Positions 22,238 to 59,739 of a DNA stretch of 64,000 nt are shown here, piece after piece. The DNA comes from a candidate division WWE3 bacterium. Lineage in GTDB: Bacteria > Patescibacteriota > 4484-211 > GCA-002791395. The notes below the pieces were generated by a model. The model saw only the letters and a list, made by a program, of their open reading frames with translations, did no database searches and had not been told where the DNA came from. Position 1 is the stretch's first letter. Each line of letters opens with the position of its first letter. Made by a program: the position numbers and the translations under genes. The stretch lies in the NCBI GenBank assembly GCA_013335095.1, contig JAAXWF010000001.1, forward strand, positions 214,797 to 278,796, read 5' to 3'.

Positions 22238-22270
22238 TTATTATATTTTAACTATTTCTAAACTATATTC

Positions 22271-24007: not shown

Positions 24008-24019
24008 ACGTTTAGTTGA

Positions 24020-26272
24020 CTAGTTTTTACAATAACGATATTCACCGTAATCTTGTGATGGGTTACCGCGATATGGACCTTGAGAATCAGCTTCGCCTGT
24101 GTATCCCCACTCCTGGCTAATTTGTCCGGACACGGGCCACCCATATGGCCTTGCTTGATCATCTGAAAGACGACCACCAATTGGTATCGATGCGAGGATT
24201 ACTGAACGCGATGCACGATCTTCCTCTAGCCCTCCAAATTCAGCCGATACTTCGATTGGCCCGATTACTGAATTATTTGAGGAAGCGTTATAACCGCAAC
24301 CACCAAATGCAGTAACATCTCGATACAGATAGAATAAAGGATTTGGTGTGGTGTCAGGCTTCTTCGGTAAAATTAAGACTCGTGGATCAGTACCTAAACA
24401 ACGTCCATCTTCAGTACGATTACCCGATAGCTGATCATATTTATCACACACAAAATTGTAGTCGCGAGGAACCAACCCACCTAATCCAGATATTGATGGT
24501 GGTGCGATATCGATACAAGGAGTAAAACAACCCATGGCGCTCGCAGCTGGTGGATTTACTGTTTGGAACAGTCGCTTTATAGGTGCTGGAATAATCATTC
24601 GATCTTCAAGCCAAGACATAATGTCTGAGTTTTTATCTTCAGGTGCCTTCACTTCGCAAGTCGGTCCAGAACAATCAGCATATGGAATTAAATCGCCTTC
24701 TCCATCACCATTTAAATCAGGACATTGGCTTAACGAACCACGTCCCTCACTCTGCGCTCTTTCATAGCACCATGGTGGAGGACAACCAGGTACAGTATAT
24801 CCGCCTTGGTCACAAGTAAATCCGCCCGCATGAGTCTGGTCAGCAATAGTAATTCCATAATACTGGGCACATTCTTGTATTGTGGGTTGGTGATCTGGTC
24901 GGTATTGACATCCCCATTCACCACCATGTAACTTAACCCCCTGACATTGACACGGAACCGCTGGTTGTGAAAGTTTATACTCCCCGAGTGTTTGTGAGGA
25001 TGTAATCGAATCTGTAGTATCCGGTAACACAGTAATCTCTGAAGAAGACGGCTGTAACGGCAACTCTTTTATCTCTCCAGCCTGTAAGGTGAATGGTCCA
25101 AACACAATTTGTGGACTGGTAACATCTGGACGTGTCTCTAAATACATAGGTACCCCATTTATCGTTCGTATCAGAATCGACGGCCAATCAGGGTTAGCAG
25201 AACCATATAATCCGATTTGTTCGGTTAAATATTCATCCAGGGAAGAACCATGTATATAATTCACTGGATTTAGAGGATTGTCTGTAGCACCTCCACGTGC
25301 AACCAAAAAATCAACGTTGTGCGCAAAGGCGTCTTCACCTCGTGCATCAAATGTTTTTGTATTAAGACGAACTAAAATATTATCGATTTCTAGATCACTT
25401 GTATTTTCAGCCTTGACGTATAACGAAATTGCATTAGATGCGTATACCTCTGTATGAAATTCAACGTATGCTTCGTCTTCACATGATCCAGTAAAACAAT
25501 CACGCACGCACTTATAAGAATATCCATCACGCCGAATAAACTTATTTGAGATAGAATTCGCCAAACCAAAGGTATTTGGACCTTGCGCCGCATGGCTAGT
25601 AACAGGAACAGCTCCCCAGTCAGCCATCACGGGAGATTGGCCACACCAACCAGCAATAACATGACGTATCCCCGAAACATGACAACCACTCTCAGGACAA
25701 ATCTCCCAATGCGGTGGTTCATCAGTTGGGGTCGGTACGGTAAAGGCATTAGCTGTTTCTCCAATCAGACCATTTAAACTAGTCGGAGTATTCAGCTCAG
25801 TACTCGCAAGAGGTGAATTTTGTTCTTGTATTCCACTACGGACTCGTCCTGGACCACATTGAGGACAAGAAATAAGACTTTCATGTAATTCTTTCAGCGG
25901 ATCTTCGACAGTTGGGACAAAGGCTTCACCACCAAGGGATACGGTATCCCACTCTAAAGATAACTTAACTTGTTTTATCATATTTGGAGCAGGAGGAACT
26001 CCCGGAGGAACCTCACCAGTAGGTACAGGAGCATCTGAGGGCACATTAGCAGGACCTTGAATTACAGCACCTCCAGGAAATGCACCAAAGAAGCCATCAA
26101 AGATAGAATCAAGACGATCTCGAAATCCACTGAAGATACCACTATTATTTCCGCTACCATCAAATATTCCACCCGCATGAGAAATACTAACGGGTCTAAC
26201 GATACAAAGTAAGGTAATCAAAAACAAAAACAGCAGTCGAGTAAGACTAGAAAAAACAGTTTGTTTATTCAT
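24020..26272 (-). CDS. Large secreted cysteine-rich protein (750 aa), function unknown
   Basis: Signal peptide, a Gly/Pro-rich N-region and many paired Cys (CPQCGPG, CQCQGVK...GCQYRP, PGCPPPWCY, CSGPTCEV). The extreme C-terminus carries YGWPVSGQISQEWGYTG, which resembles the opening strand of an M23 domain, but the protein ends before any HxGxD. Confidence 0.5.
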   Translation of the reverse strand: MNKQTVFSSLTRLLFLFLITLLCIVRPVSISHAGGIFDGSGNNSGIFSGFRDRLDSIFDGFFGAFPGGAVIQGPANVPSDAPVPTGEVPPGVPPAPNMIKQVKLSLEWDTVSLGGEAFVPTVEDPLKELHESLISCPQCGPGRVRSGIQEQNSPLASTELNTPTSLNGLIGETANAFTVPTPTDEPPHWEICPESGCHVSGIRHVIAGWCGQSPVMADWGAVPVTSHAAQGPNTFGLANSISNKFIRRDGYSYKCVRDCFTGSCEDEAYVEFHTEVYASNAISLYVKAENTSDLEIDNILVRLNTKTFDARGEDAFAHNVDFLVARGGATDNPLNPVNYIHGSSLDEYLTEQIGLYGSANPDWPSILIRTINGVPMYLETRPDVTSPQIVFGPFTLQAGEIKELPLQPSSSEITVLPDTTDSITSSQTLGEYKLSQPAVPCQCQGVKLHGGEWGCQYRPDHQPTIQECAQYYGITIADQTHAGGFTCDQGGYTVPGCPPPWCYERAQSEGRGSLSQCPDLNGDGEGDLIPYADCSGPTCEVKAPEDKNSDIMSWLEDRMIIPAPIKRLFQTVNPPAASAMGCFTPCIDIAPPSISGLGGLVPRDYNFVCDKYDQLSGNRTEDGRCLGTDPRVLILPKKPDTTPNPLFYLYRDVTAFGGCGYNASSNNSVIGPIEVSAEFGGLEEDRASRSVILASIPIGGRLSDDQARPYGWPVSGQISQEWGYTGEADSQGPYRGNPSQDYGEYRYCKN

Positions 26273-26347
26273 GCATTAATAGCAACAGTACCTAAGTTGT
26301 AACACCTATTTATTATCATTTCAAGTAATGTCACAGTCATTAACGAA

Positions 26348-26770
26348 CTAAGCATTATACTTTGCTTGATTAGAAAGGTAATCCCTTAATAATTCCTTTG
26401 CCGATTCAGAATGTCCCAGATTATGAGATAGAGATAAGCCATCATGTCGCATATTTTTCTCGGCCTGAAATGTTGTTAAGAATTCAGAAAATAATATAAT
26501 ATCTACTCCAAATTGTTTTTTAATTTTTGTAAAGACTTTTTGAAAATTATCAGGTAATTTTTTCTCACCCATATCTCCGACAAGAAATGCGGTAACATCA
26601 AATTCTTTCACGATGTTCGATAAATATTCAAAAAAGAGGAATTCATTCTTGTACTGATGCGATGATAAACTTTCAATCCCATACGCAGGACGATAAATAG
26701 CCAGGCCAATATATCGAAGACCCAAATCCACACCAATAATTACCTGTTCATTTTTATGTTTGACTGTCAT
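26348..26770 (-). CDS. YqgF/RuvX-like RNase H-fold nuclease (putative Holliday-junction resolvase-like)
   Basis: VIIGVDLGLRYIGLAIY plus downstream acidic residues fit YqgF. About 140 aa. Confidence 0.55.
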   Translation of the reverse strand: MTVKHKNEQVIIGVDLGLRYIGLAIYRPAYGIESLSSHQYKNEFLFFEYLSNIVKEFDVTAFLVGDMGEKKLPDNFQKVFTKIKKQFGVDIILFSEFLTTFQAEKNMRHDGLSLSHNLGHSESAKELLRDYLSNQAKYNA

Positions 26771-28274
26771 TTCCACTACGCACCTCAACCTTCACCTCAA
26801 GTCTATCTGAAATATGCGGCATAGATCGGAATGCATCGGGGATATATGGCCAGAGATTCATATCATAACCATCAACATGCTCCATCGACTTTAATATCGA
26901 CTCAGCTTGTGCAGGACGTATATTTAATAATTGGTCATGGATCTGATTTAGATTGAGATCAGGAACGACCATTGTTGCTAACTTTGCCTTTACGGTTATA
27001 GCCGAATTTACTTGACCTTCAATTTTTTCTAACGCAAGAGAATCTTCATTGTCTGTTACGACGAATCCATCTGGTATATTATCACGGGCGACTTTACTCA
27101 ACAGTTCTTTTACATCGCTTTCAGAAAATGCAACTACACTAGCAGAAATTTTTAACGTCAGAGCAAAATTTGAAGCCTCTGCTCCTACTGGATGATCATA
27201 GTCAGCAAATTTAGTATCAAATGAAATCATATCATCAGAAAATGTCTCACCTTCTTTTAATTCAGATTTTACTTTTGTCGGTGCATCAGCCTGTAATTTA
27301 CTCTTCAATTGCTTAAGAGCATTGGATTGATCGTCGGCCGATACAACAGTTACCTCACGAGTCAATCCTCCCGTTAATGCTTGTGGATTCGTCGCTCGAA
27401 CTGATCCAAGACCTTTTACCTTAAACTCGCCAACCGTAAAATCAGAATTAGCAGAAAGATTATATGTTTCACCAATATCAAGGGCTCCAATAGCAAGAGG
27501 CGAAGATTCACCCGGATCGAGGACCATTTGACCATCCTTCTCACTAATAGTCACCTCATCAACACGAACGGATTTATTTAGTACATATGACAAAGTCCCG
27601 CTTTTAAGAATAGTTCCAACAGGTAACTCAAGTGCAGAGTCACGGAAATTTTGGATAACAACCTGACCCGTCGCTTTTTCTCCAACCTGCTTTTTTCCAG
27701 AAGATGGGAATGTTTCACTTTGTTCAATTGTTGTTTCGACCTTTCGTCCTGGAATTTTCGAATTTGACTCATCAATTGTTTGAATATCTGGGTCAACCGT
27801 AACAATAGAACTTTTTTCAATAACTCGCTGATTAACGTAGAGCGTTACAACACCACGAGGTAGATAGTATAAGACAAATCCTGCCGTGGCTAATCCGGCT
27901 AGCAACAGAATAATCAAAAACGTAGCAATTAATCTTTTTGGAGTAAGGACTGATTGATGATGTTTATGTTTTTCATTCTTTGCAATCGGAGTATCAGCTT
28001 GTTTTAGCTCGTTCTTGTCATCGAGTACGCTCTCAGTAGATTCTTCGGAGGGCTCACTATTCTCCTGCACACTCATTGGTTGTCCACCTTCATGAACTAT
28101 ATGTATTTTTTTTCCTGTACGTTGGGCTACTTTCTCTAAAAGCGATAAATTTGAATGATACGACTTGAATACAGATCCCTCTGGCAAAAACAATTCGATA
28201 TCTTCACCAGAATACTGCTTCATCCCGTGAACTACTTCATATAATCTAATATGGTCATCTAATATTATTTTCAT
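26754..28274 (-). CDS. Bitopic membrane protein with a large extracytoplasmic domain (PilN/PilO-like partner?)
   Basis: 506 aa: a ~115-aa cytoplasmic N-region, one TM (LIATFLIILLLAGLATAGFVLYYL), then a ~370-aa outside domain. Translationally coupled to the actin-like ATPase upstream. Confidence 0.4.
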   Translation of the reverse strand: MKIILDDHIRLYEVVHGMKQYSGEDIELFLPEGSVFKSYHSNLSLLEKVAQRTGKKIHIVHEGGQPMSVQENSEPSEESTESVLDDKNELKQADTPIAKNEKHKHHQSVLTPKRLIATFLIILLLAGLATAGFVLYYLPRGVVTLYVNQRVIEKSSIVTVDPDIQTIDESNSKIPGRKVETTIEQSETFPSSGKKQVGEKATGQVVIQNFRDSALELPVGTILKSGTLSYVLNKSVRVDEVTISEKDGQMVLDPGESSPLAIGALDIGETYNLSANSDFTVGEFKVKGLGSVRATNPQALTGGLTREVTVVSADDQSNALKQLKSKLQADAPTKVKSELKEGETFSDDMISFDTKFADYDHPVGAEASNFALTLKISASVVAFSESDVKELLSKVARDNIPDGFVVTDNEDSLALEKIEGQVNSAITVKAKLATMVVPDLNLNQIHDQLLNIRPAQAESILKSMEHVDGYDMNLWPYIPDAFRSMPHISDRLEVKVEVRSGNDSQT

Positions 28275-28276
28275 AG

Positions 28277-29407
28277 TTATAATTCAACCCTGGTTAACGC
28301 TTCAATATTTGGTAACTTACCCGAGATTGTTTCTATCTTAGGGAAATTAACAAAATGTAAAAACTTAGTCCAAGGATACGCTGATAAACGCGATTTAATC
28401 TCACTTAGATGGCGCGATTCACCTGAAATAATAAGCCGCGGTGGGAGGTCATTTACTTTGAATTCTGAGAGCGCCGACGCGATGCCTTCTACCCAGATTT
28501 CGAGCGCAGTCTCTATCGAATGTTTTGTCATTCGTCCACGATCTTGGTCTAAATGTCCTTGGGCATATTCTAATTTCAAGTTCTCAGCATTATCATATGA
28601 GGTATTAAGATCTTGCTGTATTTGCCAGGTAATATCATTTCCTCCAATAAATAAGACTTCGTTTCCAACAACTTTCCCGCTCACAACAACAACGACCTCA
28701 GTCGAGTCGCCACCTACGTCTAAAAGAATAAAATCATTTCCGTCTTTTGACAAATCGACAGCGGCTTGCACCGATGTTTCAATAAGTGACACGATTTCAA
28801 GATTAAACTGATCAATAAGCGCATTGATCGTGTTTAGTTTAGTTTGGTCAATAAAATAATGTAGCACAGCTACCTCAATTTCGTTACCGGCTAGACCAAT
28901 GGGAGTCGAAACACGGGCCCCATCGACTTCAAAACCAGTAAAACTTGTTTCAACTCGAGTTAGTTCAGAACCACACTTTGCCTGAAGCTCTTGTAATGCT
29001 TTGTTCAATGTTTTTTCTTCTATTTTTTGGGCAATGACTTCAAACTCTTTCTCGGTTAATATCTCGGTCGGATGGCTCCGTTTGGTCCTGACTCGAAGGC
29101 CTCGAACATGAATCATCCCACCTGATAAACCTAATACAACCTGATTAGATTGCGAATCTGATTTTAGAGTTGCTTCATCTAATGCTAGCTTAAGGGAATC
29201 GGTTACGGCATCTAAATTTGTAATTTGCCCTGCATACATACTTTTTCGGCCCTGTATCTGGGATCCCATCCCAATAATCCTTGACTCGTGTTGTTCATCT
29301 GCAGGTTCAAATACAGCCACACGAATAGCAGAGCTACCTAAATCGATAGCGGTGTAGTATGGGGTCTTCTTTTGTTTAAAAATATTACCTAAAAGTTTTC
29401 CCTTCAT
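28277..29407 (-). CDS. Actin-like ATPase of the FtsA/PilM family
   Basis: YTAIDLGSSAIRVAVFEP (phosphate-1), ILLDVGGDSTEVVVV (phosphate-2) and a C-terminal adenosine motif. No ftsZ follows, so PilM-like is favoured. Confidence 0.6.
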   Translation of the reverse strand: MKGKLLGNIFKQKKTPYYTAIDLGSSAIRVAVFEPADEQHESRIIGMGSQIQGRKSMYAGQITNLDAVTDSLKLALDEATLKSDSQSNQVVLGLSGGMIHVRGLRVRTKRSHPTEILTEKEFEVIAQKIEEKTLNKALQELQAKCGSELTRVETSFTGFEVDGARVSTPIGLAGNEIEVAVLHYFIDQTKLNTINALIDQFNLEIVSLIETSVQAAVDLSKDGNDFILLDVGGDSTEVVVVVSGKVVGNEVLFIGGNDITWQIQQDLNTSYDNAENLKLEYAQGHLDQDRGRMTKHSIETALEIWVEGIASALSEFKVNDLPPRLIISGESRHLSEIKSRLSAYPWTKFLHFVNFPKIETISGKLPNIEALTRVEL

Positions 29408-35431: not shown

Positions 35432-37540
35432 TCAAGCAGCATTAGCAACAATCTTTTCAGTAATATTCGTAGGTACAATTTGATAGTGACTTGGGACAAG
35501 CATAAAGCTCGCACGTCCTTGTGTCATCGAACGTAAATTAGTTGCATATCCAAACATTTCGGCTAGTGGAACTTGCGCAACAATAGATACCGCGTTTCCA
35601 CGTTGATTGGTTGTAACAATTTGACCACGTTTACCAGAGAGATCTCCTATAATATCCCCCATAAATTCTTGTGGAGTAACCACTTCCAGCTCCATTATTG
35701 GTTCGAGTAACACTGGTTTTGCTTGTTTTACACCTTCACGGGTAGCAATTGATCCTGCTAATTTAAAGGCGATTTCAGATGAGTCAACATCATGATAAGA
35801 ACCATCCACAAGAATGATACGAACATCCTGCACAGGATAACCGCCCAAGACACCACTATCCAACGCCTCCATCACACCTTTTTCAATAGGATTTATAAAT
35901 TCATTTGGAATTGCTCCCCCCTTGATCTTGTTAACAAACTCTCGCCCCATACCTCGATCTAAAGGTTCGACATCAATCATCACATCACCATATTGACCTC
36001 GACCGCCACTTTGACGAATATATTGCCCACGTACATTCTTAACAGGTTGAGTAATAGCTTCACGGAAAGCAACCTGAGGTCGTCCCACATTCGCTTCGAC
36101 CTTAAATTCACGTAATAAACGATCTACCATAATTTCTAAATGTAACTCGCCCATTCCTGAGATTAGCGATTGACCTGTGTCTGGATTTGTTTGCAACTTA
36201 AATGTTGGATCTTCTTCTTGTAACTTGCGGAGACCCTCACCAAGTCTCTCCTGGTCAGATTTTGATTTTGGTTCAATAGCGAGTGAAATGACCGGATCTG
36301 GAAATTGAATCGTTTCCAAAATAACTGGATTCGCTGGATCACACATTGTTTCTGATGTGACGGTATCTTTTAATCCTACTGCAGCACCAATATTTCCAGC
36401 AGTTAGCTCAGAAACTTCTTCACGTTCGTTGGCATGCATAAGAAGAATTCGTCCGATTCGTTCTTTAATATTTTTAGTCGGATTAAAGACAGTATCACCA
36501 GACTTAATTTTCCCAGAATAAACTCGGAAATACGTTAATCGTCCAACATAGGGATCTGTTTGTACTTTAAATGCTAATGCTGAAAATGGATCATTAATAT
36601 TGGGATGACGTTCAACCTCTTCATCTGTATTCGGATTGATACCCTTCGTATGTACAACTTCTGCTGGTGATGGCAGGTACTCTACGACCGCATCTAATAG
36701 AGGTTGCACACCTTTATTTCGTAGGGAAGTACCAGTTAATACAGGTACTAGCTTTAGAGCAACAACAGCCTTACGCATGCTTGCTTTCAGGCGATCAATT
36801 TCGATCTCATTACCCTCTAGATAATCATTTAATAATTCGTCATCTGTTTCAGCAATCTTCTCAATTAATTCTTGTCTAAGCTCTTCGGTCATTTTGCGAT
36901 GAGCTTCATCAACCAATTCGCATGAATCGACATCGAATGCTTCAAACTTGGCACCGAGCTCTTCACCATTCCAGATGAGGGCCTTACGAGTAAGCAAATC
37001 GATAACACCTTTGAAGTCTGATTCTGTACCAATTGGGATATTATATGCGACTGCCGGCAAGCCTAATCGATCTCGAACCTCTTTGAGGGTGTTTACGTAA
37101 TCAGCACCGACTTTATCGATTTTATTAACAAAAATTATTCGTGAAATATGATATTTATCAGCTTGACGAGAAACTTTCTCGGTTTGAGCTTGTACGCCTT
37201 CAGATGCATCCAGAACCATTACAACGCCATCAAGAACGCGAAGAGAGCGTTCTACCTCAGCCGTGAAATCAAGGTGACCAGGAGTATCGATAATGTTAAT
37301 TCGGTGATTTAACCAAAAAGTAGTTGTTGCAGCAGAAGTTATGGTGATACCACGTTCGCGCTCTTGCTCCATCCAATCCATGGTGGCAGCACCTTCGTGC
37401 ACTTCGCCGATTTTATAAGTACGCCCAGTGTAATACAGAATCCGTTCAGTAGTAGTTGTTTTCCCCGCGTCAATGTGTGCAATGATCCCGATGTTGCGAA
37501 TCTTTTCAATCGGTGTTTCGTTGATTTTTTTCTCCGCCAT
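35432..37540 (-). CDS. fusA: Elongation factor G
   Basis: 702 aa with AHIDAGKTTTTE, DTPGH and NKID motifs and five-domain length. Confidence 0.97.
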   Translation of the reverse strand: MAEKKINETPIEKIRNIGIIAHIDAGKTTTTERILYYTGRTYKIGEVHEGAATMDWMEQERERGITITSAATTTFWLNHRINIIDTPGHLDFTAEVERSLRVLDGVVMVLDASEGVQAQTEKVSRQADKYHISRIIFVNKIDKVGADYVNTLKEVRDRLGLPAVAYNIPIGTESDFKGVIDLLTRKALIWNGEELGAKFEAFDVDSCELVDEAHRKMTEELRQELIEKIAETDDELLNDYLEGNEIEIDRLKASMRKAVVALKLVPVLTGTSLRNKGVQPLLDAVVEYLPSPAEVVHTKGINPNTDEEVERHPNINDPFSALAFKVQTDPYVGRLTYFRVYSGKIKSGDTVFNPTKNIKERIGRILLMHANEREEVSELTAGNIGAAVGLKDTVTSETMCDPANPVILETIQFPDPVISLAIEPKSKSDQERLGEGLRKLQEEDPTFKLQTNPDTGQSLISGMGELHLEIMVDRLLREFKVEANVGRPQVAFREAITQPVKNVRGQYIRQSGGRGQYGDVMIDVEPLDRGMGREFVNKIKGGAIPNEFINPIEKGVMEALDSGVLGGYPVQDVRIILVDGSYHDVDSSEIAFKLAGSIATREGVKQAKPVLLEPIMELEVVTPQEFMGDIIGDLSGKRGQIVTTNQRGNAVSIVAQVPLAEMFGYATNLRSMTQGRASFMLVPSHYQIVPTNITEKIVANAA

Positions 37541-37665
37541 ACAGCGCCGATTATAACAGAGTGGGGAACAGTGTCAACAGAAATACAACACTAAAATAAA
37601 GCAAAAATATGTAATTTAAACTTTATACTTAATCTAAATAAATATGTATGAAAAAATAACAAAGA

Positions 37666-38136
37666 TTACCACTTAAAGTGAGCAAAGGCTCGATTTGCTT
37701 CGGCCATTTTATGCATGTTTTCGCGTTTCTTTATTGCATCACCTTCATTTTTGATTGCGTTGACGAGTTCTTCAGCGAGCTTCATTTCCATCGGGCGACC
37801 CGAGCGCTCATCTGCAGCTTGAATCATCCACCGCATCGCCATTGCCTCACCTCGTGATTTACTAACGGGAACAGGGATTTGATAGGTTGCGCCACCGACA
37901 CGCCGTGGGCGAACTTCTACTTCGGGACGAATAGTCATCAATGCTTTTTCAAATAACTCGGAGGGGGTCATGCCTGCTTTTTCAGCTGCGACATCTAGTG
38001 CACCATATACAATTGTTTTTGCTTTATCTTTTTTACCGTCGCGCATGACGTAATTTATAAATTTAGTAACACGAATATCTTGATAGCGCTCATCAGGTTG
38101 TAATACTTTTCGTCGAACTAATTTACTTCGTGGCAT
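37666..38136 (-). CDS. rpsG: 30S ribosomal protein S7
   Basis: 156 aa with the conserved C-terminus ...KMAEANRAFAHFKW. Confidence 0.95.
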   Translation of the reverse strand: MPRSKLVRRKVLQPDERYQDIRVTKFINYVMRDGKKDKAKTIVYGALDVAAEKAGMTPSELFEKALMTIRPEVEVRPRRVGGATYQIPVPVSKSRGEAMAMRWMIQAADERSGRPMEMKLAEELVNAIKNEGDAIKKRENMHKMAEANRAFAHFKW

Positions 38137-38139
38137 AGT

Positions 38140-38568
38140 TTATTTGGCTCCCTTCTTTTCATTTGGTTTTTTGGCACCATACTTGGATCGTGAAGTCATA
38201 CGACCTTGAACACCAGAGGTATCTAGAGTACCTCGAACAATATGATATTTAACACCTGGCAAATCCTTTACACGTCCGCCTCGAATCATTACGATACTAT
38301 GCTCTTGAAGATTATGTCCTTCACCTGGAATATACACGGTAACTTCTTTTTTATTTGAGAGACGAACACGAGCAACTTTTCGTAATGCTGAGTTTGGTTT
38401 CTTAGGGGCCATGGTTCGGACCAATAGAACGACTCCGCGCTTAAATGGATTAGATGCAGTTGTTAAACGACGCTTTGAATTATTCCACTGTCCATTCAAT
38501 GCAACTGACTTAGCTTTTTTATTTTTTGTTCCGCGTGGTTTGCGGATGAGTTGATTTATCGTTGGCAT
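38140..38568 (-). CDS. rpsL: 30S ribosomal protein S12
   Basis: [12 protein letters not shown]... and [11 protein letters not shown]. Confidence 0.95.
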
Positions 38569-38583
38569 GACGGGGCGATTCTA

Positions 38584-40236
38584 TCACAAATTGATCATAA
38601 CCGGCAAGATCATTGGTTCACGTTTCGTTTTTTTGTAGAAAAAGCGCTGTAGATCAGCCTCTATGACATCTCGAACTTTCGACCAATCGTTAGCAGTTTT
38701 ACCTTCAATATGGTTTGAGGCTATCTTCTGGGCTTGCTTAATCAAAGCATCTGATCCGGCCATATAAATAAAACCACGACTTACAACATCGACAGAGGAA
38801 ACCAAGTTGCCGTTATTTTGTTTTTTCACGATGACAACGAAGATACCTTCTTCAGCCATCTTTTGACGATCTTCTAGTACGACCCGACCAACATCACCAA
38901 CTACACTGCCATCAACGAAGACGTCTTTTGTAATAACATCATCCCCCACCCGAGCTTTACCTTTTATAAATTCGATTGTTTGGTTCTCTCGTAATTCAAA
39001 CACTGTTTGAGGATCAAATCCCATTCTCTCAACGAGGGCAGCATACCCCTTCTGATGCCGTGGTGTACCACCAATAGGTACAAAATATTTAGGTCTGGTA
39101 ATTGCAGCCATGATTGATAAGTCGCCCTGCGTACCATGTCCACTAACATGTAAATCGTCTTGAATCTCTGAATAGACAACTCGGGCGCCAGCAGTAGTTA
39201 GATTATCAATTACCGCACCGACCTGATCAAATATTCCTGGGATAGGATCGGCTGAGAAGATAACAACATCATCTTCTAATAATTGAACATTTCGATTCTC
39301 ACCTCGAGAGAGACGGTCTAACGCCGAACCCTTTTGACCAAAACTCCCCGCGATAATGTAGGTGATTTTTGATGGATGGATTTTATGAGCCTTTTCTAAT
39401 GGTACAAGAATGCCCTCAGGAACGTTTAAATAACCCAAATTAACTGCAATCTCGATATTTTGATCAATACTGCGACCGACTGGCACAATTTGCCTACCGT
39501 ACTTCACTGACGCATTAATAGCTTGCTGCATACGAGAGATGTTTGATGACATGGTGGTAATAAAAACTTGTCCTGGTGCGTTCTCCATTTCACGTTCAAA
39601 AGAGTGCTGTATTTTACGTTCAGATTCTGTGTATCCTTCGGCATTCGAACCTAAACAGTCAGAAAACAGGGCTAATACACCTTCCTCGACTAATCGAGCT
39701 AGTTTTCCGATTTGAAAAAACTTACCGTCAACAGGAGTCCAGTCGAATTTGAAGTCAGGTGAGTGAACCAAGTTTCCAAATGGGGTTCGAATAAAAAATC
39801 CTAACGTATCTGGTACAGAGTGATTTACACGATATGGAGTTATTTCAAATTCTCCAAGTCGAATCGGTGGACCGTCTGGATCAATTAAATTTAGCGTCTG
39901 ACCTTTTAATAAATTGAACTCTGACAATTTGTTTTGGATAAAACCACGCGGCAATTTTGCGGCATAAACGGGAGGACGCCCAAGGTCTTCTAGAACATAG
40001 GGTAAACCACCTATATGATCTTCATGAGCATGTGAAATCAGAATGGCACGGATACGATCTTTACGATCACGCAAATAACCAACATCTGGAATCACTACAT
40101 CAACGCCAAGTTGTTCAGTTTCAGGAAAACCAATACCAGCATCAATGACGATGATGTCTTTGTCGCTTTCCCAAACATGCATGTTCTTTGTGACTTCACC
40201 AACGCCACCTAATGGAATGTACCGTAATTTATTCAT
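38584..40236 (-). CDS. rnj: Ribonuclease J (metallo-beta-lactamase/beta-CASP)
   Basis: HAHEDHIGGLPYVL (HxHxDH) and beta-CASP region, 550 aa. Confidence 0.85.
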   Translation of the reverse strand: MNKLRYIPLGGVGEVTKNMHVWESDKDIIVIDAGIGFPETEQLGVDVVIPDVGYLRDRKDRIRAILISHAHEDHIGGLPYVLEDLGRPPVYAAKLPRGFIQNKLSEFNLLKGQTLNLIDPDGPPIRLGEFEITPYRVNHSVPDTLGFFIRTPFGNLVHSPDFKFDWTPVDGKFFQIGKLARLVEEGVLALFSDCLGSNAEGYTESERKIQHSFEREMENAPGQVFITTMSSNISRMQQAINASVKYGRQIVPVGRSIDQNIEIAVNLGYLNVPEGILVPLEKAHKIHPSKITYIIAGSFGQKGSALDRLSRGENRNVQLLEDDVVIFSADPIPGIFDQVGAVIDNLTTAGARVVYSEIQDDLHVSGHGTQGDLSIMAAITRPKYFVPIGGTPRHQKGYAALVERMGFDPQTVFELRENQTIEFIKGKARVGDDVITKDVFVDGSVVGDVGRVVLEDRQKMAEEGIFVVIVKKQNNGNLVSSVDVVSRGFIYMAGSDALIKQAQKIASNHIEGKTANDWSKVRDVIEADLQRFFYKKTKREPMILPVMINL

Positions 40237-40272
40237 ATTCTATTTTTCTTATCGCAGTTAATATTAACATAT

Positions 40273-40911
40273 TTAAAACAATGACGGTTGATCCGATTTA
40301 TTATCGGTCTGAACTGAATTATTTGATTCCTTTACAAACAACGAAAAACCATCGCCTAGGCTACTTTTCAGTAGCAATGATAATGTTTCTACATCTTTAT
40401 TAAAAGCGGCCAGAACCTCGGAAGCCCGTAAAGCAGCTGCGGGATGATACAGGGGAAATATGGTTATACCTAATGAAGTTTCCACTTTATTTCCGTGACA
40501 CCGTGAAATCTTTTCTTCTGGCAAAAACCAATTCATTGCAAAACGTCCCAAAGTAACAATCACCTTAGGTTCAATAATAGCTAACTCACGCTCTAAATAG
40601 GGACGATATATACCGATCTCTTCGGGTAAAGGATCTCGATTTTCAGGTGGACGAGCTTTAACAATGTTCGTTACCCAAAATGCATTACGATCCAATCCAT
40701 ACTTAGCTAGAGTGGAATTTAACAGTTTACCGGCTTGACCGACAAATGGTCTTTTCTCTTTGGCTTCAAAAAAACCGCCTGCCTCGCCAATGAATACGAC
40801 GTAGTTATTCGGATTACCATCGCCTGGTATAAGCGGTGATTGATCGGTTAAAGGGAGATTGGCACCTTCCATTTCGAAGAATAATTCGGCTAACGCCTTT
40901 TGTTTTTCCAT
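40273..40911 (-). CDS. Uracil-DNA glycosylase superfamily protein (family 4/5-like, without Fe-S cysteines)
   Basis: GEAGGFFEAKEKRPFVGQAGKLLN (motif A-like) and HPAAALR (motif B). Only one Cys in the protein. Confidence 0.7.
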   Translation of the reverse strand: MEKQKALAELFFEMEGANLPLTDQSPLIPGDGNPNNYVVFIGEAGGFFEAKEKRPFVGQAGKLLNSTLAKYGLDRNAFWVTNIVKARPPENRDPLPEEIGIYRPYLERELAIIEPKVIVTLGRFAMNWFLPEEKISRCHGNKVETSLGITIFPLYHPAAALRASEVLAAFNKDVETLSLLLKSSLGDGFSLFVKESNNSVQTDNKSDQPSLF

Positions 40912-40921
40912 CAGTAAGTTA

Positions 40922-42085
40922 TTACAAATAATCGGGCATGTATTCTTTGATGTTATCGAGGGTGATTACAAAATGGTCACCACGCCCTTCAGCCATACGC
41001 AATGCGACTTTACGAACTACTGAGTTTATCGTTCGCTCCATTGTACGAATACCTGCATCATACCCAAGCGGCCTAGTGATGCTTGTCCAAACATTTGGCT
41101 CGAATTCAACCGCGTCAGCGGGCATACCAGTTAGTTTTATTTGCCGAGGAAGAAGATAATCACGCGCAATAATAATTTTTTCCTCATCTGAATATCCTGG
41201 CATTTTAATCAGTTCCATACGATCAAGTACCGCATTGCTAATTCCTCCGGTATTGTTTGCCGACGCTAAGAACATTACCTGAGATAGGTTAAAGGGATAA
41301 TCGACATAATAATCTTCAAAAGCAAAGTTCTGCTGAGGATCAAGCAACTCTAGTAAAACGCCCATAATCTGCCCACGAGCCTGCTCAGCAGTTCGGTCGA
41401 CCTCATCCAGTAAGATTACCGGATTTCTCGTTTTCGCCCGTAATAGACCCTTTATAACCTGCCCTGGTTCGGCTTCGGCAGAGGTGCGTGCTTCACCTCG
41501 AAGCTGTAGGGCGCTGCCCATACCTCCACACGGTATACGAATAAATTCGCGATTCATCGCCTTAGCAATAGAGTAAGCGATTGATGTTTTACCGATTCCT
41601 GGTAAACCGACAAAGAATAAAACAGATTGCGCTGCATGTCCTTGATTCTGCTCATCTTCCAGAATGGCGGCACGAGCGGGATCTTCTTTAGCTATTTTTT
41701 GCAAACGGAGGATTGCTATGTACTCTAAAATACGTTGTTTAACACTTTCTAAACCATGATGGGACGAAGTGAGAATCTCGTGTGCCCGATCAATATCAAG
41801 ATTATCCTCGCTCGTATTAGTCCAAGGAAGTTTTGTAACAACATCAATATATTTTTCAATCTGGTCAAAGCTAGCATTAAATGCAGCTTCACCAAATTGT
41901 CGGTTTACACTGGTCAAAAGTCGTAGCAATTTATTAATAAGTTCACTAGGGAGCTCAATTTCAGAAACTTGAGTAGCGATGCGCCGAATATCTTCGACTT
42001 GGATATCGTCAGATGCTAACCATTTCTTCAAACGGTCAATCGGAGATTCTTCGGATAATATTTCAGGGGCGATAGCAACTTCCAT
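40922..42085 (-). CDS. Lon-derived AAA+ ATPase lacking both the N-terminal LAN domain and the C-terminal protease domain
   Basis: VGLPGIGKTSIAYSIAKAMNREFIRIPCGGM...ILLDEVDR...ASANN..LDRMELIKMPGYSDEEK aligns to the Lon AAA+ module. The ORF ends 10 nt before the next gene. Confidence 0.7.
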   Translation of the reverse strand: MEVAIAPEILSEESPIDRLKKWLASDDIQVEDIRRIATQVSEIELPSELINKLLRLLTSVNRQFGEAAFNASFDQIEKYIDVVTKLPWTNTSEDNLDIDRAHEILTSSHHGLESVKQRILEYIAILRLQKIAKEDPARAAILEDEQNQGHAAQSVLFFVGLPGIGKTSIAYSIAKAMNREFIRIPCGGMGSALQLRGEARTSAEAEPGQVIKGLLRAKTRNPVILLDEVDRTAEQARGQIMGVLLELLDPQQNFAFEDYYVDYPFNLSQVMFLASANNTGGISNAVLDRMELIKMPGYSDEEKIIIARDYLLPRQIKLTGMPADAVEFEPNVWTSITRPLGYDAGIRTMERTINSVVRKVALRMAEGRGDHFVITLDNIKEYMPDYL

Positions 42086-42130
42086 ACAGAATTAGTATAC
42101 GCAAACAGAAAAAAAAGACAAATACAACAA

Positions 42131-42622
42131 TTACTCTGAGTCAGTAGATTTAGGAGACTCGGCCTGCTCGCTGGGTGCAGATTCTTTAACAGACCCGCCG
42201 GCTTTTGTAATTTTTTCTAATGCCTTGCGAGAAAATTTAAATGGTCCATCAAATACAAAGGCTTTTGTAGTTAAACCGTAGCTTAACACTTTGACGACTT
42301 TTACTTTATTAGAGACTAAATTCTTTTCTTTTAGTCCATCAAGAGTAATAACCGCATTAGTGTCAAAGAATTTGTCTATCTGACTTATATTTAAACTGGT
42401 CGGTTTGACTCGAGAGCTTCTAAACTGTTTACCTCGTAAAAACGGCAACCGAATAACAAATTTAGTTTGTCCACCTTCAAAACCTCCAGCAACATGGTTG
42501 CGTGCTCGTTGACCTGTTTGTCCACGTCCGCTCGTCTTACCTTTTCCGGAAGAATATCCACGACCAACCCTCTTACCTCGTGGATGTACGACTTTAGTTA
42601 GTTTATGCAAAACAGTACTCAT
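42131..42622 (-). CDS. rplO: 50S ribosomal protein L15
   Basis: 163 aa with a Gly/Arg-rich N-terminus (GRGYSSGKGKTSGRGQTGQ). Confidence 0.9.
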   Translation of the reverse strand: MSTVLHKLTKVVHPRGKRVGRGYSSGKGKTSGRGQTGQRARNHVAGGFEGGQTKFVIRLPFLRGKQFRSSRVKPTSLNISQIDKFFDTNAVITLDGLKEKNLVSNKVKVVKVLSYGLTTKAFVFDGPFKFSRKALEKITKAGGSVKESAPSEQAESPKSTDSE

Positions 42623-43134
42623 TATTTTTTATCCTTTCCTTTGTTTTTCGAAATTCTCCTTGAAGCTTCGGATTTTAACATAGTTAATGCTTCAAGTGTT
42701 GTATCTACGTTACCCTTTTTACTATTAGACCCTAAAATTTTTGCAACAACATTTTGTAGTCCAGCTGCCTCCAAGACCGCTCTTACCGCACCGCCAGCAC
42801 GAATGCCTGTACCTGCTGGAGCTGGTTTTAGTAAAATTCTATTTGCACCCCGTGCCAATTCAATTTCATGCGGAATAGTTCGAGCTTCACCAACGATAGG
42901 AAATGTGATCATTTCTTTACGAGCTCGACGCATTGATTTCTTTACTGCTGGTAAAACTGAAGGAGCGTGCGATAACGCAGATCCGACTTTCCCATTGCGA
43001 TCTCCTACAACAGCTAAGCAGGTAAATCCTAACCGATTTCCACCTTTAGTCTTCTTTGATGTTCGTTTAATTTGAACAACAGTTTCAACAATCTCTTGTT
43101 TATTTTCGTCTCGTGTATTTGAAGTTTCATTCAT
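42622..43134 (-). CDS. rpsE: 30S ribosomal protein S5
   Basis: 170 aa with dsRBD and S5 C-terminal domain. Abuts rplO directly, so there is no L30 gene. Confidence 0.95.
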   Translation of the reverse strand: MNETSNTRDENKQEIVETVVQIKRTSKKTKGGNRLGFTCLAVVGDRNGKVGSALSHAPSVLPAVKKSMRRARKEMITFPIVGEARTIPHEIELARGANRILLKPAPAGTGIRAGGAVRAVLEAAGLQNVVAKILGSNSKKGNVDTTLEALTMLKSEASRRISKNKGKDKK

Positions 43135-43136
43135 AA

Positions 43137-43496
43137 TTAAAACTGTAAACCTCCTTCTCTTGCACCATCAGCAACGGCTTTAATTCGACCATGATAGCGA
43201 TAGCCGGCACGATCAAATACAACTGTTTTTATACCTTTTTCAGTAGCCTGTGCGGCGATTATTTTACCAATTTCAAATGATTTTTCTACTCCTCTTTTAG
43301 TCTTCATATCTACTTTCTTATCATTATCAAGGGATGAAGCACTGCATAATGTTTTCCCCGTTTCATCATTGATAAGTTGTACATAAATATGCTCATTAGA
43401 GCGATATACAACTAATCGTGGTTTATCACCACTACCATTTAGTTTTCGTCGCAATCTAAATTGTCTTTTCTTTCTTAATACTTCTCGTTGATACAT
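43137..43496 (-). CDS. rplR: 50S ribosomal protein L18
   Basis: 119 aa with ...RLVVYRSNEHIYVQLI... signature. Confidence 0.9.
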   Translation of the reverse strand: MYQREVLRKKRQFRLRRKLNGSGDKPRLVVYRSNEHIYVQLINDETGKTLCSASSLDNDKKVDMKTKRGVEKSFEIGKIIAAQATEKGIKTVVFDRAGYRYHGRIKAVADGAREGGLQF

Positions 43497-43497
43497 A

Positions 43498-44040
43498 TTA
43501 TCCTCCTGATGCCTTTGCTGCCTTTCCAGGCTTCAATGTAATCTGTTCACCAGCATAACGGATACCTTTTCCTTGATATGGTTCTGGTGGACGAACGCGT
43601 CGAATATTTGCAGCTGTTTGTCCTACTTTTTGTTTATCAATCCCAGTAACCTTTATTAAGCCATTTTCGATATTGAGCTCAACTCCTGCAGGTGGTAAGA
43701 AATCAACCTTATGTGAATATCCAACCGCTAATTCTAAACCCTCACCCTTTTTCTGAACACGATATCCCACGCCGACTAATTCTAACTCACGGGTAAAACC
43801 AGTTGTAACTCCATGAACTGCATTAGCTAATAAACTACGCCATAATCCCCATTGTGCACGAGCTTCTCGGCCTTCACTTACAGGCGTTACGATAAGCTTA
43901 CCTTCTTTGATTTCGATGGTTATGTGGTCTGGAATGTCGAGCGTGAGTTCTCCTTTAGCGCCTTTGACATTAACAACATGACCTTGGGTCTCGATTGTTG
44001 CTCCATTTAATTCAATTGGTTTTTTTCCTATTCTTGACAT
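43498..44040 (-). CDS. rplF: 50S ribosomal protein L6
   Basis: 180 aa, MSRIGKKPIEL... with two L6 repeats. Confidence 0.95.
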   Translation of the reverse strand: MSRIGKKPIELNGATIETQGHVVNVKGAKGELTLDIPDHITIEIKEGKLIVTPVSEGREARAQWGLWRSLLANAVHGVTTGFTRELELVGVGYRVQKKGEGLELAVGYSHKVDFLPPAGVELNIENGLIKVTGIDKQKVGQTAANIRRVRPPEPYQGKGIRYAGEQITLKPGKAAKASGG

Positions 44041-54663: not shown

Positions 54664-54984
54664 GGGGATGCTCAGCATCGACAAAAGCATTTTTTACAAC
54701 TAGCAAGCCGAGTTTTGATTATCAACTCGCTAAACAAATAATCGCAAACAATAAATGGCGTTAATAATAGTTACGCTCCAGTCGCCTACGCTATTGCGTA
54801 AAGCCCTGGCATCGGCCTTTTCTTACTACTCCTGACAAGAGAGTTAACCGGTGTAATATTAGTCAGGAATCTTTATCATTGCACTTTTATCTTTATCCCG
54901 ATGGCTAAAATCGGGAAGAAAGCTTGTAAACTAGCTGTACACAAATCTTATTGGACGAGGGTGCAAATCCCTCCATCTCCACCA
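54664..54984 (+). ncRNA. ssrA: tmRNA (ssrA)
   Basis: The 5' GGGGAUGCUCAGCAUCGAC pairs with the 3' ...GGAC-GAGGG-UGCAAAU-CCCUC-CAUCUCC-A-CCA, which is collinear with E. coli tmRNA ends, including the G3-U70 Ala identity pair. It lies immediately downstream of smpB. An internal short ORF ends at TAA 54799-54801. Confidence 0.8.
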
Positions 54985-56725: not shown

Positions 56726-58531
56726 ATGAATACCACACATATTCGCAATTTTTGTATTATCGCTCATATTGATCATGGAAAATCGACCTTGGCCGACCGC
56801 CTGCTTCAACGCACGGGCACTGTTTCTGACAGGGAGATGCAGGATCAATTCTTGGATAAGCTCGATTTAGAGAGGGAGAGGGGCATCACCATCAAGTTAC
56901 AAGCAGTGCGGATGGAGTGGAAAGACGCGATTAACGAGCAATACGTTTTAAACCTCATCGATACCCCAGGACATATCGATTTTTCGTATGAAGTAAACCG
57001 CGCCCTGGCTGCATGTGAAGGGGCACTGCTATTAGTCGATGCCAGCCAAGGAATACAAGCCCAAACGTTGGCGAACTACTTTAAAGCCGTTGAGGCAAAA
57101 CTTAAAATAATTCCCGTTGTAAACAAGATCGATTTACCTTCGGCAAGGCCAGAAGACGTTGCACTAGAGATTATTGAAACATTTGGTTTTGATCATGAGG
57201 ACATTATCTTTGCGAGCGGTAAAACGGGTGCTGGTGTCGATGAATTGCTCGAAGCAATAATTAAAAAGATACCCGCTCCCCTAGAATCGCAAAATAATAT
57301 ACCAAAAGCGTTAGTATTTGATAGTTATTATGATAGCCATCGCGGAGTGGTAGCAATGATTCGCGTAATTGAAGGAGAGTTGCATCATCAACCGATGTAT
57401 CTGGTTAATTCCCAACAAGATTTCAATCCAATAGAGATTGGTTATATGACGTCATCTCAGGTAAAAACAAAACAAATATTAACAGGAGAAGTTGGATATA
57501 TTGCGACCGGGTTAAAAGACATTGAGCGCGTACGTGTTGGTGCAACAATTACCCATGAAGAAAATTGGAATTCGGTGACACCTTTACCTGGATATCAAGA
57601 GCCAAAGCCGATGGTTTTTGCGAATCTGTTTCCAGTCGATGCCGATAAATTTAAGGAGCTACGGGAGTCGGTGCTTAAATATAAACTGACCGATGCTGCG
57701 TTCGTATATGAACCAATTCATTCCCAGGTATTAGGAGCTGGCTTTCGGTGTGGGTTTTTAGGGCTCTTACACTTAGAGGTTGTTCGGGAACGTATTGAGC
57801 AGGAATACAATATCGAAACGCAAGTAACGTCTCCTAATGTGTTGTATGAAATTGAGTTTCGCGATGGCAGAAAAGAAGCGCTCCAATCACCCGAAGATAT
57901 GCCCGATCCGAGTACGATCAGTAATATTTTCGAACCATGGTGTAAGGTAAAGATTTATACCCAAAAAGATTACATTGGTGATTTGATGAAGATATCCGAC
58001 CAACATCGTGGAGTGTTTATCGATATGAGCTACTTAGCCAGCGATAAAAGCGGATCTCGCGTTACCCTTGAGTATGATATGCCTCTTGCCGAAGTGATAA
58101 CGAACTTCTTTGATCAGGTTAAATCGGTTTCGGCTGGTTATGCATCGCTTGATTATGAGCTCACTGACTATCGTTTAGTCGATTTAGTACGCCTCGACTT
58201 GCTTTTAAACGGTGAAAGCCATGAAGCATTGGCACGATTGGTTGTCCGATCCCAGGCTCATGAGATCGGAAATAAATTGGTCAGTACACTCAAAGAGACG
58301 TTACCGCGACAACAGTTTGCCGTACCGATTCAGGCAGCCATAGGAGGAAAGATTATTGCCCGCGAAACATTATCGGCGGTCCGTAAAGATGTGACAGGAT
58401 ATTTATATGGTGGAGACCGAACCCGTAAAGATAAACTACTTAAAAAACAAGCCGAAGGTAAAAAACGTATGCAAGCTATGGGATCGGTTACGATTCCTCA
58501 CGATGTGTATAAACGTATAGTATCTCTTTAA
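56726..58531 (+). CDS. lepA: Elongation factor 4 (LepA)
   Basis: IIAHIDHGKSTLADRLL, DTPGH, NKID and the LepA-specific C-terminal domain. Confidence 0.95.
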   Translation: MNTTHIRNFCIIAHIDHGKSTLADRLLQRTGTVSDREMQDQFLDKLDLERERGITIKLQAVRMEWKDAINEQYVLNLIDTPGHIDFSYEVNRALAACEGALLLVDASQGIQAQTLANYFKAVEAKLKIIPVVNKIDLPSARPEDVALEIIETFGFDHEDIIFASGKTGAGVDELLEAIIKKIPAPLESQNNIPKALVFDSYYDSHRGVVAMIRVIEGELHHQPMYLVNSQQDFNPIEIGYMTSSQVKTKQILTGEVGYIATGLKDIERVRVGATITHEENWNSVTPLPGYQEPKPMVFANLFPVDADKFKELRESVLKYKLTDAAFVYEPIHSQVLGAGFRCGFLGLLHLEVVRERIEQEYNIETQVTSPNVLYEIEFRDGRKEALQSPEDMPDPSTISNIFEPWCKVKIYTQKDYIGDLMKISDQHRGVFIDMSYLASDKSGSRVTLEYDMPLAEVITNFFDQVKSVSAGYASLDYELTDYRLVDLVRLDLLLNGESHEALARLVVRSQAHEIGNKLVSTLKETLPRQQFAVPIQAAIGGKIIARETLSAVRKDVTGYLYGGDRTRKDKLLKKQAEGKKRMQAMGSVTIPHDVYKRIVSL

Positions 58532-58535
58532 AAAA

Positions 58536-58572
58536 TCCCGAAGCGATAAGTCGCCCCGGGATCCTTTCAGTT
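58536..58572. terminator. Nested-palindrome hairpin after lepA (UCCCG..GCGA-UAAG-UCGC..CGGGA), probably a bidirectional terminator
   Basis: Read directly. Lies between the convergent lepA and the GC-rich ORF. Confidence 0.4.
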
Positions 58573-58583
58573 TGCGAAATTTA

Positions 58584-59087
58584 CTATTCCTCTGGCGGAG
58601 AGGGTAGCATGTCGAGATCGGACCGCATCAGTCCGAGTACGATGTCTCGCTCCATCTGGCTGGCCCAACCGACCATGATAAGGAAGGCCAACCGCAGTCG
58701 GTAACGATCCAACGACTCAAGCGGATACAGATCAAGCAAGTGCTCGATCCGGTCGATCGGCCACTCTTCCCTGGAGGCAACCCCCTGAATTAGAAGTTGC
58801 ACCAGCAGGTACGAGACACCCAGTTGATCAGCGATCAACTGGCGGCGAAGACGACCGTGCGTAACCTCGAAGATATTGCGTACCCAAAGCGAGGCAGTGC
58901 GCCGTTCAGCATACTCAGGCGTACCCATCAGGGCCGCCCAACGCCGCACGACCTCGGTCATGCGGGATTCAAACTCCCGCTCCTCCTCGGTTTTCTCCGA
59001 AGCATTGATTTCGTCAATCTCTTGGTCGGTCAGACCGAGGTCTCGAAGTGCCTGCCGATCAGGGTCTTCCGCTGGTACCTGGGACAT
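58584..59087 (-). CDS. Hypothetical protein (GC-rich island)
   Basis: High-GC ORF. The start is uncertain (MSQVPAEDPDRQALRDLGL... is preferred). No family recognised. Confidence 0.4.
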   Translation of the reverse strand: MSQVPAEDPDRQALRDLGLTDQEIDEINASEKTEEEREFESRMTEVVRRWAALMGTPEYAERRTASLWVRNIFEVTHGRLRRQLIADQLGVSYLLVQLLIQGVASREEWPIDRIEHLLDLYPLESLDRYRLRLAFLIMVGWASQMERDIVLGLMRSDLDMLPSPPEE

Positions 59088-59200
59088 ACAGCCCCTCCTT
59101 TGCATAGATTCCACCAAACTTAGCCCTTATATTTTACCACACCACTATAGGATGGTATAATTTAAATACAGTGTCTAAGGGGACTATCAAGGAGGATGCA

Positions 59201-59638: not shown

Positions 59639-59644
59639 TAATGT

Positions 59645-59682
59645 CCCCTGGCGCGCACCACGCGCGTCAGGGGATTTTTTTT
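59645..59682 (+). terminator. Rho-independent terminator (CCCCUGGCGCGC-ACCA-CGCGCGUCAGGGG, then U8)
   Basis: Read directly, immediately after the stop at 59638. Confidence 0.65.
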
Positions 59683-59739
59683 CACCTCATATGATATGAT
59701 ACGACTATCGGCCGAATAGAGTTGCAAGGAGGTCACTTC

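Follow-up and report, generated by a model that had tools for sequence, protein, structure and literature searches.

The stretch of DNA analysed here (the window) comprises 64,000 nucleotides (nt) of the genome of a candidate division WWE3 bacterium. At 40922..42085 on its minus strand lies the gene that is the subject of this report, a complete ATG-to-TAA open reading frame (ORF) of 387 amino acids (aa) plus stop, which encodes a stand-alone AAA+ ATPase derived from LonA; all parts of this Lon-AAA gene and the window genes next to it described below are on the same strand. The gene product is 100% identical to a database protein (P0001) encoded on a 536-kb contig and named 'AAA family ATPase [candidate division WWE3 bacterium]' by NCBI.

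Domain content and ATPase motifs

The protein is composed of three parts. Residues 1–135 (41681..42085) are equivalent to the three-helix bundle and pre-AAA helices of LonA and match the TIGR00763 model from position 242 onward; in the AlphaFold2 model, this region forms helices 15–24, 31–42, 47–62, 69–85, 98–108 and 113–132. Residues 157–292 (41210..41617) make up the AAA+ α/β nucleotide-binding domain (Pfam AAA, E 8.6e-19), and residues 297–387 (40925..41197) the Lon-type lid (Pfam Lon_lid at 319–368, E 1e-7). The chain ends in NIKEYMPDYL followed by the stop codon, so that the ORF terminates 4–5 residues past the lid.

The original prediction for this gene, made from the DNA sequence alone, was a Lon AAA+ module without the N-terminal substrate-binding domain or the protease domain, and domain searches agree with it. 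A Pfam scan finds AAA and Lon_lid, neither LON_substr_bdg nor Lon_C, and nothing else substantial. TIGR00763 ('lon', the endopeptidase La equivalog) matches only at model positions 242–567 of 795, with 327.5 bits against a cutoff of 608.05, and NF008053 gives a score of 211.7 against a cutoff of 891, also below equivalog level. Of five features of LonA membership, one, the Lon-type AAA+ module with lid, is found in the protein, and four are missing: the N domain, the S16 domain, the pore-loop residues and the equivalog score. There is also no room for the absent domains at either end, as had been pointed out, with rplO 45 nt upstream and a uracil-DNA glycosylase (UDG) gene 10 nt downstream.

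The missing domains were also sought outside the ORF. Profile hidden Markov models (HMMs) for Lon_C and Lon_N were built from 58 full-length LonAs and run against the six-frame ORFs of the window and of 88 related loci of about 20 kb each (1.56 Mb). In the window and the 88 loci, the Lon_C HMM gave no match up to E 10, whichever frame was read. The Lon_N HMM found nothing in the window and one marginal match (E 0.014, locus L069) among the 88 loci. As a positive control, E. coli Lon_C scores 3e-92 with 294 bits, which validates the control sequence used. No protease was found among the 20 large window ORFs scanned. An in-frame Lon_C domain, named at the outset as a result that would overturn the assignment, is thus not present.

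The closest solved structure by sequence is that of Bacillus subtilis Lon (3M6A, E 3e-68), and residues 33–383 align to a stretch of it that finishes exactly at the start of the protease domain. An AlphaFold2 monomer model, generated from an alignment of 52 family sequences, has a mean predicted local distance difference test score (pLDDT) of 91.1 and a predicted template modelling score (pTM) of 0.86. In Foldseek, the model pairs best with AAA+ modules, those of human LONP1 and of bacterial LonA (E about 1e-31). The best mutual coverage is with 6N2I, an engineered E. coli Lon AAA+ fragment of nearly equal domain content (TM-score 0.79 by query and 0.90 by target). However, 6N2I is a laboratory truncation, whereas the family described below is a natural, ancient and conserved one that also carries changes in the pore loops. 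The window protein therefore consists of the LonA core only: three-helix bundle, AAA+ α/β domain and lid. It cannot be a protease, the proteolytic domain being absent.

All the motifs of the Lon ATPase core that had been predicted, namely Walker A, Walker B, the sensors and the Arg finger, are present. Their conservation was counted in 117 family sequences of at least 340 aa. In Walker A (G160-LPGIGKTS-168; 41582..41608), G160, G163, G165 and K166 occur in 117/117 sequences and T167 in 116/117. Walker B (I224-LLDEVD-230; 41396..41416) has invariant D227, E228 and D230. Also invariant are the sensor-1 residue Asn277 (41255..41257) and the Arg finger Arg289 (41219..41221), which bound the segment 41219..41257, as well as the sensor-2 residue Arg347 (41045..41047); R351 is likewise invariant or nearly so. 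An alignment of 52 sequences, 46–77% identical to the query, has 60 invariant columns. The family has thus kept every residue that ATP binding and hydrolysis call for, the trans-acting Arg finger among them, and it is under strong purifying constraint across hundreds of reduced genomes. Since an Arg finger serves the ATP of the neighbouring subunit, its invariance argues for an oligomeric ATPase.

The short Lon family and its pore loops

Relatives of the window protein are encoded by at least 593 GTDB species genomes, as counted with two family-specific peptide patterns and one genome per GTDB species. Carriers are found among WWE3, Gottesman-, Ames-, Woese-, Roizman-, Curtiss- and Shapirobacteria and others, and also among the Dojkabacteria. 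The 120 best database matches come from WWE3, Gottesmanbacteria and other Patescibacteria and are 47–77% identical to the window protein. They are 235–411 aa long (117 of at least 340 aa and three partial), and apart from AAA, and Lon_lid in nearly all of them, they have no domain; several of them are annotated by JGI as 'ATP-dependent Lon protease'. All 85 of 85 non-duplicate loci have an ORF of 326–405 aa that ends 3–5 residues after the lid. The usual tail is N-[IV]-K-x-[FY]-[LM]-P-x-[WY], which the C terminus of the window protein matches; P384 is found in 111/117 sequences, and W or Y at the end in 96/117.

We define the family by its domain content, which is limited to three-helix bundle, AAA and lid in a folded core of about 330–410 aa, by an A-E-P-G motif in pore-loop 1, by a small residue at the aromatic position of pore-loop 2 and by the tail motif. 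The window protein has all of these. In neighbour-joining trees of the AAA+ module, it falls within a monophyletic short clade, in which all short proteins (27/27) group together with no others, including a Dojkabacteria member and long-tailed members. The mean distance of this clade is 0.60 to canonical LonA and 0.67–0.68 to the AAA+ modules of tandem-AAA Lons. The closest-scoring full-length LonAs that could be named come from Chloroflexi, Deinococcus, Firmicutes and one eukaryote, and none from the candidate phyla radiation (CPR). The simplest history, as suggested by these comparisons, would be a single loss of the N-terminal substrate-binding and C-terminal serine-protease domains in a common ancestor of WWE3, Microgenomates and Dojkabacteria, after which the stand-alone LonA ATPase module would have been passed on vertically in these CPR lineages.

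An origin from a split tandem-AAA Lon was considered and rejected, because the tandem modules, compared with canonical LonA, are more distant from the family and have lower per-domain scores: each tandem-Lon module gives 180–300 bits with the family profile, compared with roughly 340–530 bits for family members. The tandem-AAA Lons (for example P0121 of Dependentiae, P0122 and P0124) do contain Lon-type AAA+ modules, some with an A-E-P-G pore loop, but they keep Lon_C and the aromatic pore-loop residues, which the short family does not. The usual picture of Lon is that of a single-ring AAA+ protease; many cluster representatives (among P0121–P0138, P0149–P0158 and others) have two or three AAA+ plus lid modules and a single Lon_C in about 890–1400 aa, for example P0122, with modules at 174–523 and 531–873 and Lon_C at 874–1073. 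Such a stacked-ring 'type II' Lon looks unusual.

Some members of the short family are longer. P0136, P0142, P0143, P0145 and P0273 (N-terminal) and P0162 and P0159 (C-terminal) carry tails of 70–350 aa that are rich in P, Q, S and T and probably disordered. No Pfam domain was found in the tails of P0136, P0142, P0143, P0145, P0162, P0159 and P0139, and tails from different lineages resemble one another little or not at all. A lineage-specific part in recruitment or in condensates is possible. Domain fusions as a clue to function were accordingly set aside, as the longer members offer only these low-complexity tails.

In fold, the short proteins resemble the LonA proteases (MEROPS S16: 3M6A, Meiothermus taiwanensis LonA (MtaLonA), E. 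coli Lon and human LONP1), with the same three-helix bundle, AAA+ α/β domain and lid, the same Walker A and B, sensor-1, Arg finger and sensor-2, and an ungapped alignment of roughly 32–35% identity around the pore loops. LonA proteases, however, have LON_substr_bdg and an S16 domain with a Ser-Lys dyad, and the short family has neither. A second difference lies in the pore loops, the positions of which we assigned by ungapped alignments to Thermus and Meiothermus LonA. In MtaLonA, Tyr397 of pore-loop 1 and Trp431 of pore-loop 2 touch the translocating polypeptide, and both are reported to be necessary for degradation (PMC8503904). In pore-loop 1 of the window protein (A199-RTSAEAEPG-208; 41462..41491), Ser202 stands at the position of Tyr397; in pore-loop 2 (R231-TAEQARGQI-240; 41366..41395), Ala236 stands at that of Trp431, where B. 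subtilis Lon has Phe.

Of all pore-loop-1 residues, the one at position 202 is under the least constraint across the 117 family sequences, with 16 residue types, among them H (37/117), F (21/117), L (11/117), T (9/117) and Y (2/117). At position 236, 110/117 have a small residue (A 91, G 10 and S 9). Beside the variable position, A205-E206-P207-G208 is conserved at 92–99% where LonA has A-[LM]-P-G, and position 204 is usually acidic, making pore-loop 1 acidic. We parsed the pore loops of the 150 best cluster representatives. Nearly all parsed proteins with N and C domains have T-Y-x-G, x-x-P-G and D-[FWYM]-RGD, a few deviating in pore-loop 2, and the canonical pattern was found in none (0) of the parsed short members. 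Nor does the window protein, with Ser202, have the conserved aromatic-hydrophobic pore-loop 1 of threading unfoldases of the ClpX, ClpB or HslU type. These alignments show that the canonical polypeptide-gripping residues have been lost and that a new, nearly invariant acidic A-E-P-G motif stands beside the first of them. Loss of the protease domain is thus accompanied by loss of the threading residues and gain of an acidic motif, which we read as a signature of functional change rather than decay. Taken together, the window protein is almost certainly a genuine, functional, protease-less derivative of LonA.

Gene neighbourhood

In the window, the Lon-AAA gene is embedded in a tight string of housekeeping genes. 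Upstream, the homologue of ribosomal protein L15 (rplO; 42131..42622), which ends 45 nt before it, is the neighbour found in WWE3-type loci. Downstream, a gene of the uracil-DNA glycosylase superfamily (PF03167; 40273..40911), an optional insert in the conserved gene order, is followed by an RNase J homologue of 550 aa (rnj; 38584..40236), the most conserved downstream neighbour of the family. The full order is spc-type ribosomal cluster, rplO, Lon-AAA gene, UDG, RNase J, rpsL and rpsG, with gaps of 10–45 nt, and fusA and tuf follow rpsG by synteny with the related locus L001.

This neighbourhood recurs across the family, a point that was not part of the original prediction. Among the 74 loci with enough flank, 58 have RNase J on the same strand within 4 kb downstream; in 16 loci it follows the Lon-AAA gene directly, and in 34 UDG stands between them. 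The rpsO-PNPase (pnp) pair is immediately upstream in 44/70 loci, and FtsK usually comes after RNase J. In WWE3, the pairing with RNase J holds although the upstream neighbour is rplO and not pnp. Within about 10 kb in the 88 loci, and in the 64-kb window, no peptidase was found as a conserved neighbour.

A different arrangement is seen in 12 Roizmanbacteria-type loci. Here, groES-groEL lies divergently upstream of the Lon-AAA gene in 11/12, and a PF04308 'RNaseH_like' gene follows it convergently in 10/12 (for example L080 11068–11559, minus strand, E 9.8e-47); the latter is a second nuclease-type neighbour, in a clade without linkage to RNase J. The region between the Lon-AAA gene and the divergent groES contains, before the Lon-AAA start codon, a conserved TTTGTCAAG and then, about 10–25 nt on, AGTCTGCTAA. 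This motif lies at L080 9920–10000, with equivalents in L030, L035, L047, L062, L071, L072 and L076, and is probably a promoter or operator. Heat-shock control shared with groESL was considered and rejected: no CIRCE element was found in the groES/Lon-AAA intergenic regions, which hold only this promoter-like motif.

A scan of 37500–43500 of the window gave no convincing terminators. It returned nine promoter sites, against 14.5 expected from shuffles, and is thus not above expectation. One of these, a weak sigma-70-like site in the 45-nt gap upstream of the Lon-AAA gene (TTGTCT, 16 nt, TATACT; 42094..42121; 9/12 consensus matches), may be the gene's own promoter, although it is not significant alone. 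Membership of an anti-phage defence system was also rejected, as the context is one of housekeeping genes and PADLOC models gave only weak generic P-loop matches, the best being DolB (1e-5, 23 bits).

Several further features of the window were noted. In 37666–43134 (minus strand), as in L001, the spc-type cluster ends at rplO without secY after it, and there is no L30 gene between S5 and L15. Candidates for secY-adk-map, picked by ORF size only, are at roughly 11.4–14.1 kb, about 28 kb away. In WWE3, the Lon-AAA-(UDG)-RNase J genes, with rpsL-rpsG-(fusA-tuf) after them, join the spc and str clusters. Elsewhere, five consecutive large ORFs (577, 323, 578, 750 and 506 aa; 19536–28274, minus strand) have no Pfam match at E 1e-5; they are immediately downstream of a PilM/FtsA-like gene (28277–29407, same strand) and may constitute a lineage-specific surface or pilus-related cluster. 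Finally, GC content peaks locally at 0.516 in 58001–60000, compared with about 0.41 elsewhere in the window; the peak overlaps the 3′ end of LepA and several short ORFs, and an Rfam search there found no rRNA or other RNA family.

Possible functions of a protease-less Lon motor

We favour a reading in which the protein is a stand-alone LonA motor that acts as an oligomeric ATP-driven remodeller, and neither as a protease nor as a threading unfoldase; we consider this probable, with appreciable room for error. In this mechanism, several copies of the protein, probably six, would assemble into a ring and hydrolyse ATP at the contacts between subunits. Through ATP-driven conformational changes, the ring would remodel partner proteins or keep hold of them, acting as a kind of chaperone or as a regulator, and no substrate would be fed into a chamber for degradation. 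In the acidic pore, basic clients would be at an advantage and nucleic acid at a disadvantage. The leading candidate clients are components of RNA decay and of the ribosome, because in the window and in most relatives the gene is closely clustered, on one strand, with RNase J, with ribosomal-protein genes and, as a rule, with PNPase; the adjacency to groES-groEL in one clade fits a general role in proteostasis. The non-threading, ATP-driven element of this proposal, taken by itself, lies between evenly balanced and slightly favoured.

A number of observations weigh against this reading. About a fifth of family members have Phe or Tyr at the pore-loop-1 position, so some threading ability is possible. 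The conserved Arg finger is the one pointer to oligomerization. In LonA, hexamerization depends to a large extent on the protease ring, and isolated Lon AAA+ fragments are not known to form stable hexamers; assembly into a ring without the protease ring is uncertain. A peptidase partner may be encoded elsewhere in the genome. As for the clients, the synteny signals conflict, pointing to pnp and rnj in most loci, to groESL in others and to unrelated genes in yet others: the 12 Roizmanbacteria-type loci have no rnj or pnp nearby, and the Dojkabacteria member and one other distant member have unrelated neighbours. UDG is often inserted between the Lon-AAA gene and rnj. In addition, the 80 loci belong to related lineages, and the gene order may therefore be inherited rather than selected.

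The alternative that survives best names a client within the remodeller reading. It holds that the protein is an RNA-decay or ribosome cofactor, a dedicated partner of RNase J and PNPase in a degradosome-like assembly, in which the Lon-derived ring would remodel ribonucleoprotein substrates or regulate or assemble the nucleases. The common order rpsO-pnp-LonAAA-(udg)-rnj on one strand, with rnj in 58/74 and pnp in 44/70 loci, speaks for it, as do the short intergenic gaps, in which convincing terminators were not found, and the fact that the rnj pairing survives the change of upstream neighbour in WWE3, including in the window. Two precedents are loosely analogous. E. coli Lon targets free ribosomal proteins together with polyphosphate (PMC9961632). 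In archaea, an RNase J nuclease complex (aRNase J / RecJ3/4) was found because it associates in an ATP-dependent way with the AAA ATPase Cdc48a (PMC10470531), which by analogy would resemble the gene order seen here; however, Cdc48a belongs to a different AAA+ clade and its association is biochemical, in Haloferax, whereas the short Lon is linked to RNase J by gene neighbourhood alone. Against the cofactor role, the Roizmanbacteria-type, Dojkabacteria and other distant loci lack rnj and pnp nearby, and the Curtissbacteria loci have no rnj within the flank. Furthermore, UDG and FtsK share the cluster, which is possibly a plain string of housekeeping genes, no fusion to a nuclease occurs among the 150 best representatives, and the acidic pore speaks against direct threading of RNA. 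We regard the cofactor role as a minority possibility. Its most specific form, in which the Lon motor would have been repurposed in CPR bacteria, is unlikely: a protease-free ring with an acidic pore would work alongside RNase J and PNPase and supply the ATP-driven part of a machine for RNA decay or ribosome quality. Such a machine might, for example, make way for the nucleases by stripping off or holding basic proteins, ribosomal or RNA-binding, and, if it exists, it would be a bacterial AAA+–ribonuclease partnership without a described counterpart.

In a second alternative, Lon would be split, and the ATPase would dock on a separate peptidase (Lon_C-only, ClpP, HslV or another) as its motor. 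A division into ATPase and peptidase is common among AAA+ proteases, ClpXP and HslUV being two-component examples. The conserved tail ending in P-x-[WY] could also serve as a docking motif like the C termini of HslU and the proteasomal ATPases, but it corresponds to the start of the LonA lid-to-protease linker and may be a structural remnant. A partner protease encoded separately had been among the original proposals. It found no support, given the absence of Lon_C from every frame of the window and the 88 loci and of any protease as a conserved neighbour, and both threading residues that would feed a degradation chamber are lost. A split Lon is therefore quite improbable.

The third alternative, a classical threading unfoldase or disaggregase that, like ClpB or ClpX, would pull polypeptides through its pore without degrading them, we consider very improbable. 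Descent from Lon, the intact ATPase motifs, the divergent groES-groEL pairing in one clade and the presence of Phe, His or Leu at the Tyr position in many members are in keeping with it, and proteolytically inactive Lon (yeast Pim1) has reported chaperone-like activity. However, both gripping residues are small in the window protein (Ser202 and Ala236), the Tyr position is the least constrained of its loop, the pore-loop-2 position is A, G or S in nearly all members, and there is no N-terminal substrate-recognition domain. Thus, of the suggestion that the gene encodes an AAA+ unfoldase or chaperone derived from Lon, LonA descent stands, and classical unfoldase activity is doubtful, because Ser and Ala replace the grip residues and neither position is conserved as an aromatic in the family. 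Finally, an artefact or decaying gene, that is, a frameshifted, truncated or sequencing-error fragment of a full-length lon, has nothing in its favour beyond the short length and is effectively refuted by the short form in more than 590 species, by equal boundaries with the same stop in 85/85 loci of independent assemblies, by the 60 invariant columns and intact catalytic motifs, by the lack of any Lon_C or Lon_N remnant in any frame of the window and by the functional genes that abut both ends.

Leaving these alternatives aside, the protein is best described as a natural protease-free variant of the Lon AAA+ module, pseudo-protease-like in spirit. It shares with plant FtsHi and LonC-type proteins the theme of an AAA+ protease relative that was retained although one of two activities had been given up. 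A degenerate protease domain is still present in FtsHi, and LonC has kept the protease next to a degenerate ATPase. In contrast to both, the short family has had its protease domain deleted outright, and its ATPase is intact. The family appears to be undescribed: full-text literature searches returned no description of a protease-less Lon or of Lon in CPR, the matches to 'protease-less' being artefacts of one reference title, and a paper on a complete Microgenomates genome leaves Lon unmentioned.

At present, its members go under the name 'AAA family ATPase' or under the mistaken one 'ATP-dependent Lon protease'. Where the short form is counted as Lon, metabolic and proteostasis reconstructions of CPR bacteria are in error. 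The window also contains a tmRNA gene (54664–54984, plus strand; Rfam RF00023, 88.7 bits, E 4.5e-33), for which ARAGORN made no call. tmRNA-tagged proteins are degraded by Lon or ClpXP in many bacteria. Here, a tmRNA is present, yet the only Lon relative detected has no protease domain, which raises the question of how tagged proteins are degraded.

Lon is treated as an obligately fused ATPase-protease. The lineages described here, from a radiation with genomes of 0.5–1 Mb, have long kept the motor only, with a constrained ATPase site and with grip residues that were lost or changed. They offer a natural experiment on the activity of a Lon AAA+ ring without its protease, on how such a ring assembles without a protease ring and on what replaces Lon in quality control.

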